Shown here: one piece after another, positions 1-21,266 of the stretch
Layout of the letters: every line of letters starts with the position of its first letter
How positions within the stretch are numbered: position 1 is the stretch's first letter
Source: a virus
Lineage: Duplodnaviria; Heunggongvirae; Uroviricota; Caudoviricetes
Length of the DNA stretch: 21,266 nucleotides
Strand: one strand, 5' to 3'
Virus record (IMG/VR): IMGVR_UViG_2740892113_000010
Position numbers and translations under genes: made by a program
The notes under the pieces: generated by a model
What the model saw: only the letters and a program-made list of their open reading frames with translations
The model's database searches: none
What the model was told of the DNA's origin: nothing

Positions 1-1014
1 TTACTCTACTGTGGACACTGTGTGGACACTCTCGGCTTCAGTACCACCTCTTAGCGGATTAAGAGAAATGGCGTCCTGAAGGTACTCTGGCGCAAAATGA
101 GCGTAAACCATAGTTTGCTCAATCCGCGTGTGACCTAGTATCCGTTGTAGCGTGATAATACTTCCTCCATTAATCATGAAATGAGTGGCAAAGCTGTGCC
201 TTAGTGCATGTGTGGCTTGCCCCGTTGGCAAATCCGGTTTTATTGCTTTCATTGTTCGTCTGAAGCGAGGGTAATCAGCATCAGGGAATAAAAAACCTCG
301 TTTGTTATCCGCGATCATTTTGGCAACAGCCTCTGAGATCGGGACGGTGCGTGGTTTGTTTGTTTTCGTTTTAACAAACGTGACGCGGTTATGGATGATA
401 TTTTCTGCTTTCAAACGAGCTGCTTCTCCCCAACGTGCTCCTGTACTCAGGCAAAGAATCGCAATCTTTTTGTTGTCGCCGTCAAGTGCTGCAAGCAGTA
501 AGGCAATTTCTTCCTGTGTGAGATAGCCTGTTTCTGGTTTTTCCTCCTTAAGCCTCTTTGTCCCTCTGATAGGGTGCTCACCAAAGAATAACTCCGCTTC
601 AATCAGGGCTGTAAACATGCCGCTAATACATGTTAAATCACGATTGATACTCGAAGGTTTAATACCCTGACTTCTTCGGGTGGCGCAGTACTGGCTGATA
701 AGGGATTTCGTGATTTGAAATGCGCATGGGTCATTCGTTATTTTTGTGAAGATTTCAATTTTTCCAAGATTAGATTTCCCATGCTCTTCGTGTTTACCCT
801 TTAAATCCCACCAGATCTGTGTCAGTTCCGACAGACGTCGTTTGTCTGTTGGTTTTGATAGCCATTCTTTATTGTGGTGGTTGTACAACGTGTATTTTTC
901 GAAAGCGACAGCTTCGCTTTTCTTATCAAACTTCCTACGGATGCGTTTTCCGTTACGTCCAGTAGGGCGGATGTCCACTTCATATCGACCATCATCGAGT
1001 TTTTTGATTGCCAT
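1..1014 (-). CDS. int: Tyrosine integrase, P2 Int-like (337 aa)
   Basis: Complete minus-strand ORF whose stop codon (TAA, seen as tta at nt 1-3) is the first triplet of the window. Tyrosine-recombinase C-terminal signatures (HALRHSFATH, LGHTRIEQTMVYAHF). Length equals the 337 aa I recall for P2 Int. Sits next to the repressor gene. Confidence 0.93.
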   Translation of the reverse strand: MAIKKLDDGRYEVDIRPTGRNGKRIRRKFDKKSEAVAFEKYTLYNHHNKEWLSKPTDKRRLSELTQIWWDLKGKHEEHGKSNLGKIEIFTKITNDPCAFQITKSLISQYCATRRSQGIKPSSINRDLTCISGMFTALIEAELFFGEHPIRGTKRLKEEKPETGYLTQEEIALLLAALDGDNKKIAILCLSTGARWGEAARLKAENIIHNRVTFVKTKTNKPRTVPISEAVAKMIADNKRGFLFPDADYPRFRRTMKAIKPDLPTGQATHALRHSFATHFMINGGSIITLQRILGHTRIEQTMVYAHFAPEYLQDAISLNPLRGGTEAESVHTVSTVE

Positions 1015-3094: not shown

Positions 3095-3318
3095 TGCCGG
3101 ACAACGTAGATTTTATTCAGGAACAACAGGCTGAATTACTGGAGCGCCAGATTAACGCGGCAAGGGTAAAGCATTGCGGTGTTTCTGCGCTGGTTTGCGA
3201 AGAGTGTGACGCGCCAATACCTGCTGCCCGTCGTGCGGCTTATCCGTCAGCCACGCGTTGTGTTTCCTGCCAGTCAGTCTTTGAAGCAAAAAACAAACAT
3301 TACCGGAGAACGGCATGA
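3094..3318 (+). CDS. TraR/DksA-family C4 zinc-finger protein (74 aa)
   Basis: Four Cys in a CxxC-(17)-CxxC arrangement (CEEC...CVSC) in a 74-aa protein. ATG overlaps the upstream stop (TAATG). SD AAAGGAG. Confidence 0.7.
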   Translation: MPDNVDFIQEQQAELLERQINAARVKHCGVSALVCEECDAPIPAARRAAYPSATRCVSCQSVFEAKNKHYRRTA

Positions 3319-3596
3319 GTATTCGTATTGAAATTGGCGAGCGTTATGTCGTCACAAATGACCGTTTTCAGTTCATTTTGCAGGAGAGAAAGACCGCTGA
3401 AACCGGGAAGAATGCCGGTAAAGAGTGGCTGGATGTTGTCGGCTATTACCCCAAATTAAACCAGCTCGTTTCCGGTCTGATCCATCACGATATTTTGAGC
3501 GGTAACGCTGTCTCTTTTGAGGCGCTGAGCTCTCAGGTTGAGCAGCTCGGTCAGCAGTGTCTGACTGCGTTTCTCTGTGCGGGGAAATCTAAATGA
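3315..3596 (+). CDS. Hypothetical early protein (93 aa)
   Basis: ATGA overlap with the upstream gene and SD CGGAGAA. No recognisable motif. Confidence 0.5.
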   Translation: MSIRIEIGERYVVTNDRFQFILQERKTAETGKNAGKEWLDVVGYYPKLNQLVSGLIHHDILSGNAVSFEALSSQVEQLGQQCLTAFLCAGKSK

Positions 3597-4601
3597 TAGT
3601 TGATACCCGCTGCCGAGCTGAAAGCTCTATCAATATTATTTCTGTTTCTGGCGGAAAGGATAGCCTTGCTCAATGGCTTGTTGGTATTGAAAGCGGTGTG
3701 CATTTTTTTGCCGGTTTTTGCAGACACCGGGCATGAGCATCCGCAGACAATGGAGTATCTCGATTATCTGGAGAACCGACTCGGGCCGGTTAAACGGGTT
3801 AAAGCTGACTTCTCCCGACAGATTGAAGGTAAGCGCAAGTTTATTGCTGAGAAATGGCCTGTTTCTCTGGTTGAAGAGTGCGGAATGTCTCCGGGGGAAG
3901 CGGCAGAGCGCATCAATTGTGCGCTGGAAATTCTCAAGCCTACTGGTATCCCATTTCTTGATTTGTGCATGTGGAAAGGGCGATTTCCTTCCACTAAAGC
4001 CAGATTTTGCACTTTTGACCTTAAACATGAGCCAGTACGTACTCAGGTCGTGTTACCTGCGCTTAATGAGTTTGATGAGGTAATTAGCTGGCAGGGGATT
4101 CGCGCTCAGGAGTCTCCTGCGCGCGCGGGTCTGCCTGCCTGGGAAGAGGATGCGGACAATACGCCCGGGCTCCATGTATACCGTCCTATTCTGAACTGGA
4201 CGCATGAGGAGGTATTTGCATTTGCAAGACGTCATGGAATTAAACCTAATCCGTTATACCAGCAGGGATGCAGTCGTGTCGGTTGTATGCCCTGCATCCA
4301 CGCCAGAAAGTCTGAATTAGCTGAAATTTTTAGTCGCTGGCCGGAAGAGGTTAAGCGTGTTGCGGAATGGGAGCGACTTGTCGCCGCATGCTCCAGACGC
4401 GGAAATTCTACTTTCTTCCCGTCAACTCATGACCCGCGTCGTGCGGAACGCCGCATTGATATTATTACTGTCGATGCTTACGGAATTGAGTCTTATCGTG
4501 ACTGGGCGATGACCACGCGTGGCGGGGCACAGTTTGATTTGCTGGCTTCGGTGAATGATAAGTCAGTTTGCAGTAGTGTCTATGCCGGTGTATGTGAATG
4601 A
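3593..4601 (+). pseudogene. PP-loop / PAPS-reductase-family protein, interrupted by a frameshift
   Basis: ATG 3593 (ATGA overlap with the upstream stop) opens a frame encoding MIVDTRCRAESSINIISVSGGKDSLAQWLVGIESGVHFF..., i.e. a canonical SGGKDS PP-loop, which stops at 3734-3736. The long ORF (track 3600..4601) is in a different frame and carries the expected downstream motif FADTGHEHPQT. The two frames overlap across a T7 run (3703-3709) and a T5 run (3715-3719). Removing one T restores ...GVHFLPVFADTGHE... Confidence 0.7.
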
Positions 4602-6883
4602 GTCATTCTTTCCAGGAGCAATACACCTGCGTACCTCCGTCAGCATTTGCTGCAGGCACCGGTAAGGCGTTTACCGGTGCTTATGCATGGAACGCGCCAC
4701 GCGAGGCCGTCGGGCGCGAAAGACCCCTTACACGTGACGAGATGCGTCAGGTGCAAGGTGTTTTATCCACGATTAACCGCCTGCCTTACTTTTTGCGCTC
4801 GCTGTTTACTTCACGCTATGACTACATCCGGCGCAATAAAAGCCCGGTGCACGGGTTTTATTTCCTCACATCTACTTTTCAGCGTCGTTTATGGCCGCGC
4901 ATTGAGCGCGTGAATCAGCGCCATGAAATGAACACCGACGCGTCGTTGCTATTTCTGGCAGAGCGTGACCACTATGCGCGCCTGCCTGGAATGAATGACA
5001 AGGAGCTGAAAAAGTTTGCCGCCCGTATCTCATCGCAGCTTTTCATGATGTATGAGGAACTCTGCGATGCATGGGTTGATGCACATGGCGAAAAAGAATC
5101 GCTGTTTACGGATGAGGCGCAGACTCACCTGTATGGTCATGTTGCTGGCGCTGCACGTGCTTTCAATATTTCCCCGCTCTACTGGAAAAAATACCGTAAA
5201 GGACAGATAACCACGAGGCAGGCATATTCTGCCATTGCCCGTCTGTTTAACGATGAGTGGTGGACTCATCAGCTTAAAGGCCAGCGTATGCGCTGGCATG
5301 AGGCGTTACTGATTGCTGTCGGGGAGGTCAATAAAGACCGTTCTCCTTATGCCAGTAAACATGCCATTCGTGATGTGCGTGCGCGCCGCCAGGCAAATCT
5401 GGAGTTTCTTAAATCGTGTGACCTTGAAAACAGGGAAACCGGCGAACGCATCGACCTTATCAGTAAGGTGATGGGCAGTATTTCTAATCCTGAAATTCGC
5501 CGGATGGAGCTGATGAACACCATTGCCGGTATTGAGCGTTACGCCGCCGCAGAGGGTGATGTGGGGATGTTTATCACGCTGACCGCGCCGTCAAAGTATC
5601 ACCCGACACGTCAGGTCGGAAAAGGCGAAAGTAAAACCGTTCAGCTTAATCACGGCTGGAACGATGAGGCATTTAATCCAAAGGATGCGCAGCGTTATCT
5701 CTGCCGTATCTGGAGCCTGATGCGCACGGCATTCAAGGATAATGATTTACAGGTCTACGGTTTGCGAGTCGTCGAGCCACACCACGACGGAACGCCGCAC
5801 TGGCATATGATGCTTTTTTGTAATCCACGCCAGCGTAACCAGATTATTGAAATCATGCGTCGCTACGCGCTCAAAGAGGATGGCGACGAAAGAGGAGCTG
5901 CGCGAAACCGTTTTCAGGCAAAACACCTTAACCGGGGCGGTGCTGCAGGGTATATCGCGAAATACATCTCAAAAAACATCGATGGCTATGCACTGGATGG
6001 TCAGCTCGATAACGATACCGGCAGGCCGCTGAAAGACACTGCCGCGGCTGTTACCGCATGGGCGTCAACGTGGCGCATTCCGCAATTTAAAACGGTTGGC
6101 CTGCCGACAATGGGGGCTTACCGTGAACTACGCAAATTGCCTCGCGGCGTCAGCATTGCTGATGAGTTTGACGAGCGCGTCGAGGCTGCACGCGCCGCTG
6201 CAGACAGTGGTGATTTTGCGTTGTATATCAGCGCGCAGGGCGGGGCAAATGTCCCGCGCGATTGTCAGACTGTCAGGGTCGCCCGTAGCCCGTCGGATGA
6301 CGTTAACGAGTACGAGGAAGAAGTCGAGAGAGTGGTCGGCATTTACGCGCCGCATCTCGGCGCGCGTCATATTCATATCACCAGAACGACGGACTGGCGC
6401 ATTGTTCCGAAAGTGCCGGTCGTTGAGCCTTTGACTTTAAAAAGCGGCATCGCCGCGCCTCGGAGTCCTGTCAATAACTGTGGAAAGCTCACCGGTGGTG
6501 ATACTTCGTTACCGGCTCCCACACCTTCTGAGCACGCCGCAGCAGTGCTTAATCTGGTAGATGACGGTGTTATCGAATGGAATGACCCGGAGGTCGTGAG
6601 GGCGCTCAGAGGTGCATTAAAACACGGCCTGAGAAGACCAAACCGTCAGCAAAGAAACGGAAGCCCGTTAAAACCGCATGAAATAGCGCCATCGGCCAGA
6701 CTGACCCGGTCTGAACGATTGCAAATCACCCGTATCCGCGTTGACCTTGCTCAGAACGGTATCAGGCCGCAGCGATGGGAGCTTGAGGCGCTGGCGCGTG
6801 GCGCGACCGTAAATTATGACGGGAAAAAATTCACGTATCCGGTCGCTGATGAGTGGTCGGGATTCTGGCATCAATTTGAGTAA
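4598..6883 (+). CDS. A: Rolling-circle replication initiator endonuclease, P2 gpA-like (761 aa)
   Basis: 761 aa, as recalled for P2 gpA. HUH-type motif (TPHWHMMLF) and tyrosines in YIAKYISK. ATGA overlap with the upstream gene. Confidence 0.93.
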   Translation: MSHSFQEQYTCVPPSAFAAGTGKAFTGAYAWNAPREAVGRERPLTRDEMRQVQGVLSTINRLPYFLRSLFTSRYDYIRRNKSPVHGFYFLTSTFQRRLWPRIERVNQRHEMNTDASLLFLAERDHYARLPGMNDKELKKFAARISSQLFMMYEELCDAWVDAHGEKESLFTDEAQTHLYGHVAGAARAFNISPLYWKKYRKGQITTRQAYSAIARLFNDEWWTHQLKGQRMRWHEALLIAVGEVNKDRSPYASKHAIRDVRARRQANLEFLKSCDLENRETGERIDLISKVMGSISNPEIRRMELMNTIAGIERYAAAEGDVGMFITLTAPSKYHPTRQVGKGESKTVQLNHGWNDEAFNPKDAQRYLCRIWSLMRTAFKDNDLQVYGLRVVEPHHDGTPHWHMMLFCNPRQRNQIIEIMRRYALKEDGDERGAARNRFQAKHLNRGGAAGYIAKYISKNIDGYALDGQLDNDTGRPLKDTAAAVTAWASTWRIPQFKTVGLPTMGAYRELRKLPRGVSIADEFDERVEAARAAADSGDFALYISAQGGANVPRDCQTVRVARSPSDDVNEYEEEVERVVGIYAPHLGARHIHITRTTDWRIVPKVPVVEPLTLKSGIAAPRSPVNNCGKLTGGDTSLPAPTPSEHAAAVLNLVDDGVIEWNDPEVVRALRGALKHGLRRPNRQQRNGSPLKPHEIAPSARLTRSERLQITRIRVDLAQNGIRPQRWELEALARGATVNYDGKKFTYPVADEWSGFWHQFE

Positions 6884-6972
6884 GGATCTCATCTATACAG
6901 TATAAGTAGTTTTGACTGTAATTGATTGTTTTTTATATGGTTGCATGCATTAAATCTACGTCAATATCATTA

Positions 6973-6981
6973 TGTTATAAT
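6973..6981 (+). promoter_or_regulatory. Candidate extended -10 promoter (TGtTATAAT) for the cargo operon
   Basis: TG-n-TATAAT read at 6973-6981, about 30 bp upstream of ATG 7010 in an AT-rich leader. An alternative TTGACT (6912-6917), 16 bp, TATATG pair lies further upstream. Confidence 0.35.
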
Positions 6982-7009
6982 GCATTACTTAAAAATGTTG
7001 GAGATAAAA

Positions 7010-7201
7010 ATGTTAAAGCCTGCAGATGTTGTTTGTTTGAAAAGCGGTGGATTTAAAATGACTGTATCTGACTCTACTGAAACTCATGCTAAATGTATTT
7101 GGCATGATAAAGAAGGAGTTTTGCACGAGGAGTCATTCTCCATTGATTTACTGGAAATAGCAGAGAGTAAAAGTGGTATGCTTTGTCGTCCACGTAAGTG
7201 A
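7010..7201 (+). CDS. Small DUF2158 / YodC-like protein (63 aa)
   Basis: ATG 7010 with SD GGAG (7000-7003, 6-nt spacer). The ORF-track start at 6926 is a TTG with no SD. Motif DVVCLKSGGFKMTV...CIWHD resembles the conserved core I recall for the YodC/DUF2158 family. AT-rich codon usage. Confidence 0.6.
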   Translation: MLKPADVVCLKSGGFKMTVSDSTETHAKCIWHDKEGVLHEESFSIDLLEIAESKSGMLCRPRK

Positions 7202-7228
7202 ATCATAATAAAATTCACGGGGGAAAGT

Positions 7229-7909
7229 ATGAAACAATACAGCGAATTAGAAAACAATGTTAAGAGATTCATTGTTGAGCATGAAAAAGGGATTTCTATT
7301 GATGATATTCATCATAAGTTCCGGATGAAGGATGGTCAGAATCGCAAGATGGCAGATTATCTTATTGATAATAAAAAGATAATTTTGGAGATGAAAAGTC
7401 TTTTTTCTGACAGGGTCAAGAATGTCAATGATAAACTGAATGAGTTGGTTAAAACTGATAGTTGGCTTGCAAAAAACTGGCATGGTGCTATTCATTTAGA
7501 AGAGTTGATAAAAAGACACCCAGACTCAAAGCGATTTAGAAATGATATAATGAACTTTGCTTATGAAAATATTAAAACAAAGATAGTTAAGGAAGCTAAT
7601 AAGCAAATAAATGCAACAAAGGATGTTTTGGATTTAAATGACTCGATTGGCGGGTTGATTTTGTTAAATGATAATGTCTTTTCACATGAGTCTAATTATT
7701 TGTCAGATGAAATATTATATTTGCTAGGCACAAAGAGATATTCGAGTGTTGAGTTTGTGGTTTATATTGCAAAATTGATTGATAAACAGGTTGATGTTTG
7801 TGTGCTACTTGACAGTCAATCTAAAAATAAAAATTATATTGAATGGTATATGAATAATGTTTTTTTATTGAACTGGGCGTCTTTTAATAAATATGCAATA
7901 AAGATGTAG
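7229..7909 (+). CDS. Hypothetical protein, 226 aa (cargo, unknown function)
   Basis: Clean ORF 27 bp downstream of the YodC-like gene on the same strand, G-rich SD (GGGGGAAAG). Strongly AT-rich, Lys/Asn/Ile-rich. No Walker A or other recognisable catalytic motif. Confidence 0.7.
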   Translation: MKQYSELENNVKRFIVEHEKGISIDDIHHKFRMKDGQNRKMADYLIDNKKIILEMKSLFSDRVKNVNDKLNELVKTDSWLAKNWHGAIHLEELIKRHPDSKRFRNDIMNFAYENIKTKIVKEANKQINATKDVLDLNDSIGGLILLNDNVFSHESNYLSDEILYLLGTKRYSSVEFVVYIAKLIDKQVDVCVLLDSQSKNKNYIEWYMNNVFLLNWASFNKYAIKM

Positions 7910-8228
7910 TGGTGTGGATGGATATGAAATGAGTCAACCAAGATGCACCTTGGTCAGTAATCTCATGTGAGATACCACATATAACACCAAAAGTGTCAGG
8001 TTGATGGCCATTGTTCACCGTTTACAGCAGATTATGGTCAACGAAAATCTGACGCCTGACGAGCTGGTCGGGTGTGCCGAAATAGTCTGGGATAATTACG
8101 GGCGGTTTAACTATATCGGTCAGTCCAGAGTTGCGCCACCACCACGCAGACGATAGAGAACGCCGCCAGTCGTGAAACTTGTTTTCAGGCTGGCGGAGTT
8201 GAACAACGAGCGAAGTGAGGCGTTAGCA

Positions 8229-9170
8229 TTAAGTTAATTTTAATGAATGGTACTCTATCGAGCTGATTGTAGATGCGATATATTTACGATCATTTACAGA
8301 GAGTATTGCCGCTAGTAGACGACATACCAGAGCCTGCATTTGTAGCAATATATCGCTACCATATTGACAATCATTGATACTAGAGAAACCAAGCGGTTGC
8401 CCATTAAAAATGGCTTCATGAAAATTATCATTGCGTATAACTGAAACATTACATTCATCTGTTGCCCATGACGGGATTTTTACACCGTAATTTTCGCACA
8501 TCCAATATACTCTATTTTGATGAGATGGTTTTTTCTCTTTAATGACTTTATCCCTTTCATCCCATGCTATAGCAAAACAGCAATCAAGAGCCATATAAAG
8601 ATACTGGAATTTCTCAAAGGAAAGGTATAGTGGGTTATGTGACAGGAATAGGGAGTGTATCACCGCAGCTATTCTTTTAATGGAGCGATCATCTTTTTGT
8701 TTGTCTTTTATATAGTTAAGTGCTAGCTCTATTACTTCTTTTTCAGAGCATCCAACGAGAATAAAGTCGGTTAACTTAGTGGGCTTGATAGTGGTTGCAT
8801 CAAGAAAACCAGCGTCAGTGGTTGTCAATCTTATACCCTTGAAAAAAGAGAGGCACCACACAACAAAGTTGAGAGTTTCTAACGAGGATGTGTTTTTTAA
8901 TTTTAGTGTGTGCGTTTTGGGCATGCCGAATACTCGGTAACTATAAGGCATTGTGCATGTGTCACCATTAAGGTTATATACCTTTCGATTCCCAGGGTAT
9001 ATCCAACCATTAACAACGTTTTTATCATTGTTAATACGTTCCACGTTCTCAATAAGACCGGGTAAAGTACGCAAAGAAAATTGTTCAGTCTCAATGTTAA
9101 CTTCTACTGGATAGTATCCAAACTCCGAAATAATCTCATTTGGTTGCTGTTCGTCAACTTCACCTTGCAT
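8229..9170 (-). CDS. Hypothetical protein, 313 aa (cargo, unknown function)
   Basis: Minus-strand ORF convergent with the 226-aa gene. SD GGAGA 5 nt upstream of the ATG (complement of 9168-9170). AT-rich. No P-loop, so not an Old-type ATPase. Confidence 0.7.
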   Translation of the reverse strand: MQGEVDEQQPNEIISEFGYYPVEVNIETEQFSLRTLPGLIENVERINNDKNVVNGWIYPGNRKVYNLNGDTCTMPYSYRVFGMPKTHTLKLKNTSSLETLNFVVWCLSFFKGIRLTTTDAGFLDATTIKPTKLTDFILVGCSEKEVIELALNYIKDKQKDDRSIKRIAAVIHSLFLSHNPLYLSFEKFQYLYMALDCCFAIAWDERDKVIKEKKPSHQNRVYWMCENYGVKIPSWATDECNVSVIRNDNFHEAIFNGQPLGFSSINDCQYGSDILLQMQALVCRLLAAILSVNDRKYIASTISSIEYHSLKLT

Positions 9171-18840: not shown

Positions 18841-19626
18841 TTATGAGTGGTTTTTATTTGATGCTTTGTATTCTAAAACCTTCTTATTGGCGTAAAGGAA
18901 TTTTGTGTATGACAGGAATATAAATAGACCTGAAATGAAATAGATTAGGGATATTATTAATAATGTTTTTCTGTGGCTGTTATTATCTTTAATCTCCTGA
19001 CTTAACCATTCGGAGTCCTCCTCGTTTAGCTGTAAGAGCTTATTGCAGGCGATTGCAGGAAGTGTGTCTGTTACAAAAGTGTTCTGCAGTCTCTTGCAAT
19101 CGGCAATGCTAAAAGCTTTATAGAACTTATCTGTTTTATTGTCGGAGAACAAAAGAACCTTGTCATTATAAACATGGTACATCATATTTTTATATGGTAT
19201 GGCTATGGCATCCTCTACTATGGCAGATTGCTCGTTGTGTATGCAACATGCGAAGATAATATAAAGAATTCCGGCCAGGACTGCACTCATTGTTTTTGTG
19301 ATGCATGGCGGTTCTGTTATGTCTCCCCAGAAGCGAGTAAGGAAAAAATCCGATGTTTTTAGTTTTCCATCAATCAGCCCCTGCTGTATCATTCTCACAT
19401 CTTCGATGCCTGATACATTGATTCCGTTAAGTATTTTAAATAGTTGAATGTCGCGCCACTCGCGGTCCAGTCTTTTTAATTTTTTGTCTGAATATCCAAA
19501 TTTGAAATAATGTGCAATAAGCCTCATAAGGTTACTTTTACCAAAGCTAAAAAATGCTAATACTGCAAAGACCAAAAGATACAAAACGATTAGCTCCCAC
19601 ACATTAGTCACATTATAGCTGACCAT
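18841..19626 (-). CDS. Membrane protein, 261 aa, three hydrophobic segments (cargo between S and V)
   Basis: Minus-strand ORF with a strong SD (AAGGAGAG, 6-nt spacer to the ATG at 19626). Hydrophobic stretches near residues 10-28, 112-129 and 221-240. AT-rich, unlike the flanking tail genes. Confidence 0.72.
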   Translation of the reverse strand: MVSYNVTNVWELIVLYLLVFAVLAFFSFGKSNLMRLIAHYFKFGYSDKKLKRLDREWRDIQLFKILNGINVSGIEDVRMIQQGLIDGKLKTSDFFLTRFWGDITEPPCITKTMSAVLAGILYIIFACCIHNEQSAIVEDAIAIPYKNMMYHVYNDKVLLFSDNKTDKFYKAFSIADCKRLQNTFVTDTLPAIACNKLLQLNEEDSEWLSQEIKDNNSHRKTLLIISLIYFISGLFIFLSYTKFLYANKKVLEYKASNKNHS

Positions 19627-20693: not shown

Positions 20694-21266
20694 ATGCCGA
20701 TTATCGACCTGAACCAGCTACCCGCACCGGATGTGGTCGAGGAGCTGGACTTTGAAACCATTCTTGCCGAACGCAAGGCGACACTGATTTCCCTTTACCC
20801 GGAAGACCAGCAGGAGGCGGTCGCCCGTACCCTGACACTGGAATCTGAGCCTCTCGTCAAACTGCTGGAGGAAAATGCTTATCGTGAGCTTATCTGGCGT
20901 CAGCGTGTGAATGAGGCCGCACGGGCGGTGATGCTGGCCTGTGCCGCCGGTAATGACCTTGATGTGATTGGTGCCAATTACAACACCACGCGCCTGATTA
21001 TCACCCCGGCAGATGATTCGACCATCCCGCCGACACCGGCAGTGATGGAATCTGACACCGATTATCGTCTGCGTATTCAGCAGGCGTTTGAAGGTTTAAG
21101 CGTCGCCGGGTCGGTGGGTGCCTATCAGTATCATGGACGCAGTGCTGACGGGCGTGTCGCGGATATCTCTGTCACCAGTCCGTCTCCGGCCTGTGTCACC
21201 ATCTCTGTGCTGTTGCGTATTTTCATGAAAGGAGATCACTCAATAACTTCCATCGAGATCGGGTAA
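20694..21266 (+). CDS. J: Baseplate protein J-like, ends after 190 codons at the window edge (probably truncated)
   Basis: N-terminus MPIIDLNQLPAPDVVEELDFE... follows W as P2 gpJ does, but an in-frame TAA occupies the last three bases of the window (21264-21266). P2 gpJ is about 302 aa as I recall. Confidence 0.8.
   Translation: MPIIDLNQLPAPDVVEELDFETILAERKATLISLYPEDQQEAVARTLTLESEPLVKLLEENAYRELIWRQRVNEAARAVMLACAAGNDLDVIGANYNTTRLIITPADDSTIPPTPAVMESDTDYRLRIQQAFEGLSVAGSVGAYQYHGRSADGRVADISVTSPSPACVTISVLLRIFMKGDHSITSIEIG

Follow-up and report, generated by a model that had tools for sequence, protein, structure and literature searches.

Phage 186 carries, directly upstream of its gene A, a gene named orf84 (protein CP84; NP_052288.1), in an operon that runs in the order DUF2732, TraR/DksA zinc finger, DUF5405, orf84 and A. 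The annotation of the 186 record describes orf84 as non-essential and of unknown function, states that translation of A appears to depend on orf84 being translated to its end, and places early in A a terminator (tM1) that is active when A is untranslated. Genes of the same PAPS-reductase family occur in other phages, where they cluster in variable, anti-defence-rich regions. Two papers (PMC13551039, PMC10945359) cite a PAPS reductase from a vibriophage that has been reported to assist in evading Dnd, a phosphorothioation-dependent defence (Piel et al., 2022); one of the two saw no association with Dnd resistance among the phages that it studied itself.

The window analysed here, a stretch of 21,266 nucleotides of viral DNA (IMG/VR record IMGVR_UViG_2740892113_000010), corresponds to the left two thirds of a P2-like (Peduovirus) prophage. 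Its PAPS-reductase-family gene (3593-4601, plus strand) is frameshifted and of the orf84 type. Sequence comparison identifies it as the ortholog of 186 orf84: the encoded proteins are 82% identical over residues 2-335 and the operon order of phage 186 equals that of the window. The two loci differ in that the window copy is split by an extra T and 186 orf84 is not. As a whole, the best explanation, which we consider highly probable, is that an orf84-type gene has been broken by a genuine and vertically inherited insertion of one nucleotide, changing a run of six T (T6) into a run of seven (T7).

Genomic context of the split gene

The window starts with an integrase gene (1-1014, minus strand), followed on the early side of the prophage by the genes for the repressor C, then cox, then B (2004-2504). 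Small early genes encoding DUF2732, DUF5405, TraR/DksA zinc finger and again DUF5405 proteins lie between B and the PAPS-reductase-family gene. The last of them (DUF5405; 3315-3596, plus strand) ends in a stop codon that overlaps ATG 3593 (ATGA), a layout also present in phage 186. Downstream, an intact gene (4598-6883, plus strand) encodes the 761-aa replication initiator gpA, recognized in the list of open reading frames and by the Pfam family Phage_GPA (4e-124). This A gene is of the P2 type and diverges from that of phage 186 right after the start codon. A cargo region follows on the 3′ side of gpA, and then the portal gene Q, the terminase gene P and late genes. The placement of the split gene in a phage early region, made in the original prediction from the letters of the DNA, can thus be specified as the early lytic operon of a P2-like prophage, between cox/B and A.

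Several other features of the prophage deserve mention. The cargo region (6926-9170), which occupies between gpA and portal Q the position of tin/old in P2, encodes a small DUF2158 protein, a 226-aa protein (phrog_20483), a 51-aa ORF and, on the minus strand, a 313-aa protein (phrog_5937); apart from DUF2158, none of these cargo proteins obtained a Pfam or PADLOC assignment. Sister prophages carry in the same slot a reverse transcriptase, an 827-aa DEAD helicase or a 739-aa AAA_13 ATPase, and since the cargo varies in this way the slot behaves like a defence hotspot. Among the late genes, a 261-aa ORF (18841-19626, minus strand; phrog_2407) sits between a virion morphogenesis gene and the baseplate gene V. 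It is oriented against its late-gene neighbours and resembles a moron. Finally, the last 53 nt of the window (21214-21266) are unlike the sequence of all nine otherwise identical genomes described below and match the outer end of the multicopy IS21-family element ISEc12, which adjoins istA in E. coli strain 4/0. It thus appears that ISEc12 has inserted into the baseplate gene J (ORF starting at 20694) of the genome from which the window derives, which would be a second lesion of the prophage. The replacement of the sequence from 21214 by an ISEc12 end, inside gene J, is consistent with a prophage that is starting to decay.

One additional T separates the PP-loop from the rest of the domain

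The frame opened by ATG 3593, which has an SD-like GGGGA (3581-3585) located 7 nt upstream, encodes MIVDTRCRAESSINIISVSGGKDSLAQWLVGIESGVHFFAGFCRHRA and stops at a premature TGA (3734-3736). This N-terminal fragment of 47 codons (3593-3736, plus strand) includes the PP-loop motif SGGKDS (3647-3664). The gene body (3705-4601, plus strand; about 297 codons) lies in the frame of position 3600, which is +1 relative to that of 3593, and reads FLPVFADTGHEHPQT onward to a C-terminus in VCE and the stop codon TGA 4599-4601. A T7 homopolymer (3703-3709, plus strand) and a second run, T5 (3715-3719), are found where the two frames meet. The original prediction had distributed the PP-loop and the remainder of the domain between these two frames and had pointed to the same two T runs; our coordinates and translations agree with it on each of these points. 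It had also argued that a programmed -1 shift would land in the wrong frame. The arithmetic agrees: joining both frames needs a shift of +1 or -2, and a programmed -1 event was rejected on this ground, the needed frame being +1.

An alignment of 101 nt of DNA, in which the window and E. coli 4/0 were compared with E. coli C11 and Yersinia phage P37, shows a sole difference, T7 vs T6. Removal of one T from the window restores a single ORF of 335 aa reading GVHFLPVFADTGH, and the repaired protein is identical to an intact 335-aa protein that is found on 128 contigs. Residues 1-38 of the fragment are likewise identical to the intact P37 protein. Across the lesion region, an 82%-identical homolog reads NVPILPVFADTGH. 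Because the DNA alignment and the reading of this homolog coincide, the intact frame must run through the first T run and not through the T5 run; an indel in the latter (3715-3719) was ruled out by the same alignment together with the conserved reading LPVFADTGH. The alignment to intact homologs that had been proposed in the original prediction therefore places the indel in the first T run and bears out its central claim, an insertion of one nucleotide in the T7 homopolymer. Homologs with the same two-frame layout, which it had named as an observation that would speak against this claim, are absent, all intact relatives examined being single-frame. The family comprises more than 5000 homolog clusters, and the best 120 all have a single frame and encode proteins of 334-424 aa (334-340 aa in all but three).

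These data also bear on a reading in which the T7 run is a site of programmed recoding, where a +1 frameshift or transcriptional slippage would be a regular source of full-length enzyme. If tRNA-Phe moved by +1 from UUU (3704-3706) to UUU (3705-3707), the result would be exactly VHFLPVF, as in the wild type, and the slippage of RNA polymerase on A or T runs is well established. Against this stand the single-frame homologs, an A site with neither a slow nor a stop codon, and the lack of a convincing stimulatory element near the run; the weak GGTG that lies 5 nt upstream of it occurs in the intact T6 alleles as well. Efficient slippage moreover needs runs longer than seven T, and the run of the window is below that length. 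Because the homologs are single-frame, we discarded a programmed +1 shift or slippage as a designed feature; a programmed event being excluded on this basis, regular recoding keeps a very slight probability in our assessment. In the broken gene that we favour, low-level rescue of the frame, through slippage during transcription or a +1 slip of the ribosome on U UUU UUU, is possible and would recreate the wild-type protein.

The T7 allele follows a single prophage genotype

A megablast search with positions 3500-4700 of the window retrieved two classes of near-identical sequence. The first consists of nine complete E. coli genomes that are 100% identical over all 1201 nt and thus carry T7. The second, 99.8-99.9% identical and one base shorter, consists of five E. 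coli genomes and four phage records, namely Yersinia phage P37 and a Peduovirus P2 isolate with two records each. Intact alleles, with T6 and a 335-aa ORF, are represented by those of P37 (QIW90028.1), Peduovirus P2 OU784746 and E. coli prophages (WP_000634534.1), and their DNA is 99.8-99.9% identical to that of the window over 1.2 kb. After removal of one T, the protein of the window is identical to that of the P37 allele and 99.4% identical to that of the OU784746 allele.

In the nine T7 genomes, the entire prophage is 99.7-100% alike over 21.2 kb, which corresponds to a single prophage genotype. Flanks were checked in three of these genomes, 4/0 (Sweden), JJ2434 (USA) and BLSE177-2012 (Belgium), which have the same prophage neighbours with identical accessions for the flanking proteins. 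The insertion site is yegQ/yegR, with yegR-yegS-gat on one side in the three genomes and yegQ on the other side in 4/0. JJ2434 is a ST131 C2/H30Rx strain (PMC8829994). A draft genome, E. coli IS29, also carries T7, and a 333-aa ORF has been called there in the +1 frame. In strain 4/0, PGAP/RefSeq labels the T7 gene "frameshifted" and no other phage gene of the prophage bears this label; the other flagged pseudogene is a partial IS3 transposase remnant, and the remainder of the prophage is annotated as intact.

T6 was found in P37, in E. coli C11 and in 10/10 further contigs that were fetched for the exact intact protein. These ten contigs represent several prophage backbones and three kinds of flanking context: two attachment sites account for eight of them, six at gat/yegS/yegR and two beside another integrase, and one is an integrase-less remnant. 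The T6 contig most similar to the window is collinear with it and occupies the same site, but has 126 differing positions in 14.6 kb. Since T7 is tied to one genotype and T6 is present in all sister contigs fetched, T6 is, by this sequence comparison, the ancestral state, and T7 arose once, in one prophage genotype, and was then inherited.

The integrase-less remnant (8976-12663 of contig L017; CP050198.1) is part of a 5.66-Mb genome. It extends from DUF2732 through DUF5405 and the TraR zinc finger to an intact PAPS-reductase-family gene and then a truncated, 552-aa gpA, without integrase or late genes, and is surrounded by autotransporter, Rhs and T6SS genes. The accessory gene has remained intact there while the phage decayed.

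The original prediction had left three explanations for the extra T side by side, a pseudogene, a homopolymer sequencing error and phase variation, and the distribution of the alleles favours the first. If the extra T were a sequencing or assembly error, the gene would be intact in the source genome. Homopolymers are indeed the classic site of indel errors in long reads, and T6 is far commoner in public data (128 contigs vs a few). On the other hand, the same T7 is present in nine complete genomes from different submitters and countries, as well as in the draft IS29. The sister prophages are consistently T6, and T7 follows one genotype and, where checked, one insertion site, which indicates inheritance rather than random error. 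With nine independent complete assemblies and one draft carrying T7, a sequencing error is very unlikely, and we attach hardly any probability to it.

The remaining explanation is that the T tract is a contingency locus that alternates between T6 and T7 by slipped-strand mispairing, perhaps switching gpA through translational coupling. A +1 change in a mononucleotide run is the type of change that slippage yields, and in phage 186 the end of the gene is coupled to A. However, six or seven T are short for efficient switching, the tract is one of 40 A or T runs of at least six in the window, and the 82%-identical homolog has GTACCCATATTGCCG in its place, so that the tract is not conserved. Furthermore, the T7 copies form a single genotype, for which 9/9 genomes have T7 and no T6 copy was found. 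A contingency locus is hence improbable to a high degree, and its fuller version, in which the T6/T7 tract would be a heritable slippage switch for both the accessory enzyme and, through gpA coupling, prophage replication, is a shade more doubtful still; if true, prophage induction in a pandemic E. coli clone would be under a phase-variable lock. Of the three explanations, only the pseudogene stands.

The repaired protein is a member of the PAPS-reductase family

The repaired protein matches the Pfam family PF01507 (PAPS_reduct) with 123.6 bits (cut-off 22.5; 1e-35) over residues 15-236, in line with the view that the split PAPS-reductase-family domain reported in the original prediction is no chance pattern, and it also matches phrog_424. 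Both the profile score and the SGGxDS motif thus place it in PF01507, with the qualification that in the window its reading frame is interrupted by the stop codon 3734-3736. Full-length homologs are encoded by phages of Burkholderia, Pseudomonas, Serratia, Stenotrophomonas, Vibrio and Bacteroides; that of Vibrio phage 367.14 is 32% identical to the window protein at 97% coverage. In an alignment of 28 homologs, the PP-loop SGGKDS (residues 19-24) is invariant, as are Cys139 (in RFCT), Cys226, Cys231 and Cys234 (in GCSRVGCMPC) and the C-terminal Cys326 and Cys334. The CxxC of this set aligns with the Fe-S CxxC (GCaPC) of the APS reductase of M. tuberculosis (7lhr).

An AlphaFold model based on the 28 homologs has a mean pLDDT of 76; its quality is good up to residue 265 and poor over the final 70 residues. 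The predicted structure is nearest to PAPS/APS reductases and then to the Fe-S tRNA thiolase TtuA. The Foldseek search against the PDB retrieved nothing closer than CysH and APS reductases (6vpu, 2o8v, 1sur, 2goy, 7lhr), which share the PP-loop alpha/beta fold and are, in sequence and in structure, the best matches among solved structures. In the C-terminal half of the domain, no more than about 20% of the residues are identical to those of these enzymes. Compared with them, the repaired protein contains some 70 inserted residues (roughly 70-140) and, in the low-confidence part of the prediction, an additional C-terminal extension of ~80 aa. It is not a CysH proper, as its scores fall far below the cut-offs of NF002537 (66 vs 154) and TIGR02057 (42 vs 254), the curated cut-off for APS reductase being likewise far from reached, and it lacks the ECGLH motif, its C-terminus being VCSSVYAGVCE. 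The model and the conserved residues point to an intact protein that looks like a Fe-S-type PP-loop enzyme with a cysteine-bearing C-terminal tail.

The same superfamily includes DndC, SspD and BrxP, the PAPS-reductase-like subunits of systems for DNA phosphorothioation and of BREX type 4. Their profiles match the repaired protein weakly, with E-values of 3.5e-22 (SspD), 1.8e-15 (BrxP) and 8e-07 (DndC), and these matches are limited to residues 126-263. Membership in DndC was rejected, with 22.3 bits vs a cut-off of 290.4 for TIGR03183 and only partial PADLOC matches to SspD and DndC, and membership in BrxP or SspD was ruled out by the cut-offs and by the missing partner genes. None of the DndA/D/E or SspA/B/C partners (cysteine desulfurase, DndD/SspC ATPase, DndE/SspB) is encoded in the operon, where the neighbours are instead DUF2732, DUF5405, the TraR zinc finger, B and gpA.

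In the T7 allele, residues 1-38 with the PP-loop are severed from the rest, so that the normal product is not encoded in one frame. As the PP-loop is separated from the probable Fe-S cysteine ligands and from the C-terminal cysteines, the split gene would encode no active enzyme.

A possible polar effect on the replication gene A

The stop codon of the split gene overlaps the start codon of gpA (ATGA, 4598-4601) within a junction of 21 nt that reads TATGCCGGTGTATGTGAATGA (4581-4601, plus strand). The same 21 nt, which occupy positions 4485-4505 of L009, are found without change in phage 186, P37, RS571 and the P2-like prophages despite diverging flanks. Upstream of this junction the genes have diverged by about 20%, and directly downstream the A genes show no relation in sequence. 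The conservation of the junction between diverged flanks suggests a constraint on a coupling site. The sole SD-like element before the gpA ATG 4598 is a weak GGTG (4587-4590), and the premature stop of the split gene lies 860 nt upstream of the start of A.

The coupling to A that is annotated for the end of orf84 in phage 186, together with the unchanged 21-nt junction, makes a polar effect of the frameshift on gpA probable. The argument has as its basis an annotation note in the record of phage 186, whose A differs from that of the window, and we give about an even chance to the full proposal that the frameshift is polar on gpA and weakens prophage replication. This probable polar consequence for the overlapping gene A was absent from the original prediction.

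Several ways in which such polarity could be strengthened or relieved were considered. No equivalent of the 186 terminator tM1 is conserved inside the gpA gene of the window, and a pattern scan retrieved no more terminator-like sites than expected. Hairpins predicted over the start of A are not more stable than those of shuffled sequence in the window or in phage 186 (z = 0.04 and -0.97), and RNA structure hiding the gpA start was dropped for this reason. With regard to a possible Rho-utilisation signal, the C/G ratio of the 860 nt left untranslated is mostly below 1, with short C-rich stretches near 4377-4450. The first ATG in the frame of the gene body (3750-3752, plus strand; Met53) lies 14 nt past the premature stop without SD; it is a candidate site for re-initiation, the product of which would lack the PP-loop. 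The PP-loop codons GGC GGA AAG GAT create by themselves an SD-like AAGGA located 5 nt before a TTG of the +1 frame (3666-3668). Re-initiation at ATG 3750 or initiation at TTG 3666 could bring ribosomes to the A junction.

Taken in order, the steps that we propose are the following. A T6 to T7 insertion at 3703-3709 has occurred in a Peduovirus prophage whose insertion site lies between yegQ and yegR; the E. coli lineage concerned includes the ST131 C2/H30Rx strain JJ2434. Translation from ATG 3593 ends after 47 codons, which parts the PP-loop from the remainder of the domain. Ribosomes stopping 860 nt before the start of A may then leave gpA with less coupled initiation, and additional transcriptional polarity is possible, the expected outcome being a weaker replication of the prophage.

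Role of the orf84 family and significance of the lesion

On the evidence of its operon and of the 186 record, the intact protein can be regarded as a PP-loop enzyme from the early operon of the phage that is accessory and non-essential. Its role is most likely anti-defence or DNA-modification-related, with a putative sulfur or adenylation chemistry acting on DNA or on a defence component. A link to DNA modification, which the original prediction had also suggested, is suspected because the superfamily is shared with DndC, SspD and BrxP and because a phage PAPS reductase has a reported anti-Dnd effect. The vibriophage gene with the reported anti-Dnd effect is, like that of the window, a stand-alone PAPS-reductase-family gene of a phage in a variable region, and orthology between the two is putative.

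The finding is in itself ordinary, the gene being already flagged as a pseudogene in public annotation, its family known and its ortholog present in phage 186. The correct label for the gene of the window is that of a frameshifted pseudogene of the phage 186 orf84 family, as in RefSeq for the identical genomes, and the lesion has little importance beyond annotation. The orf84 family is a widespread accessory gene family of P2-like phages, for which an anti-defence role is plausible, and the natural T7 null with its intact T6 counterpart provides a ready-made isogenic pair. One base in a non-essential gene may also cripple, via lost translational coupling, the essential replication gene downstream, and predictors of prophage intactness that count only essential genes would miss such silent inactivation.
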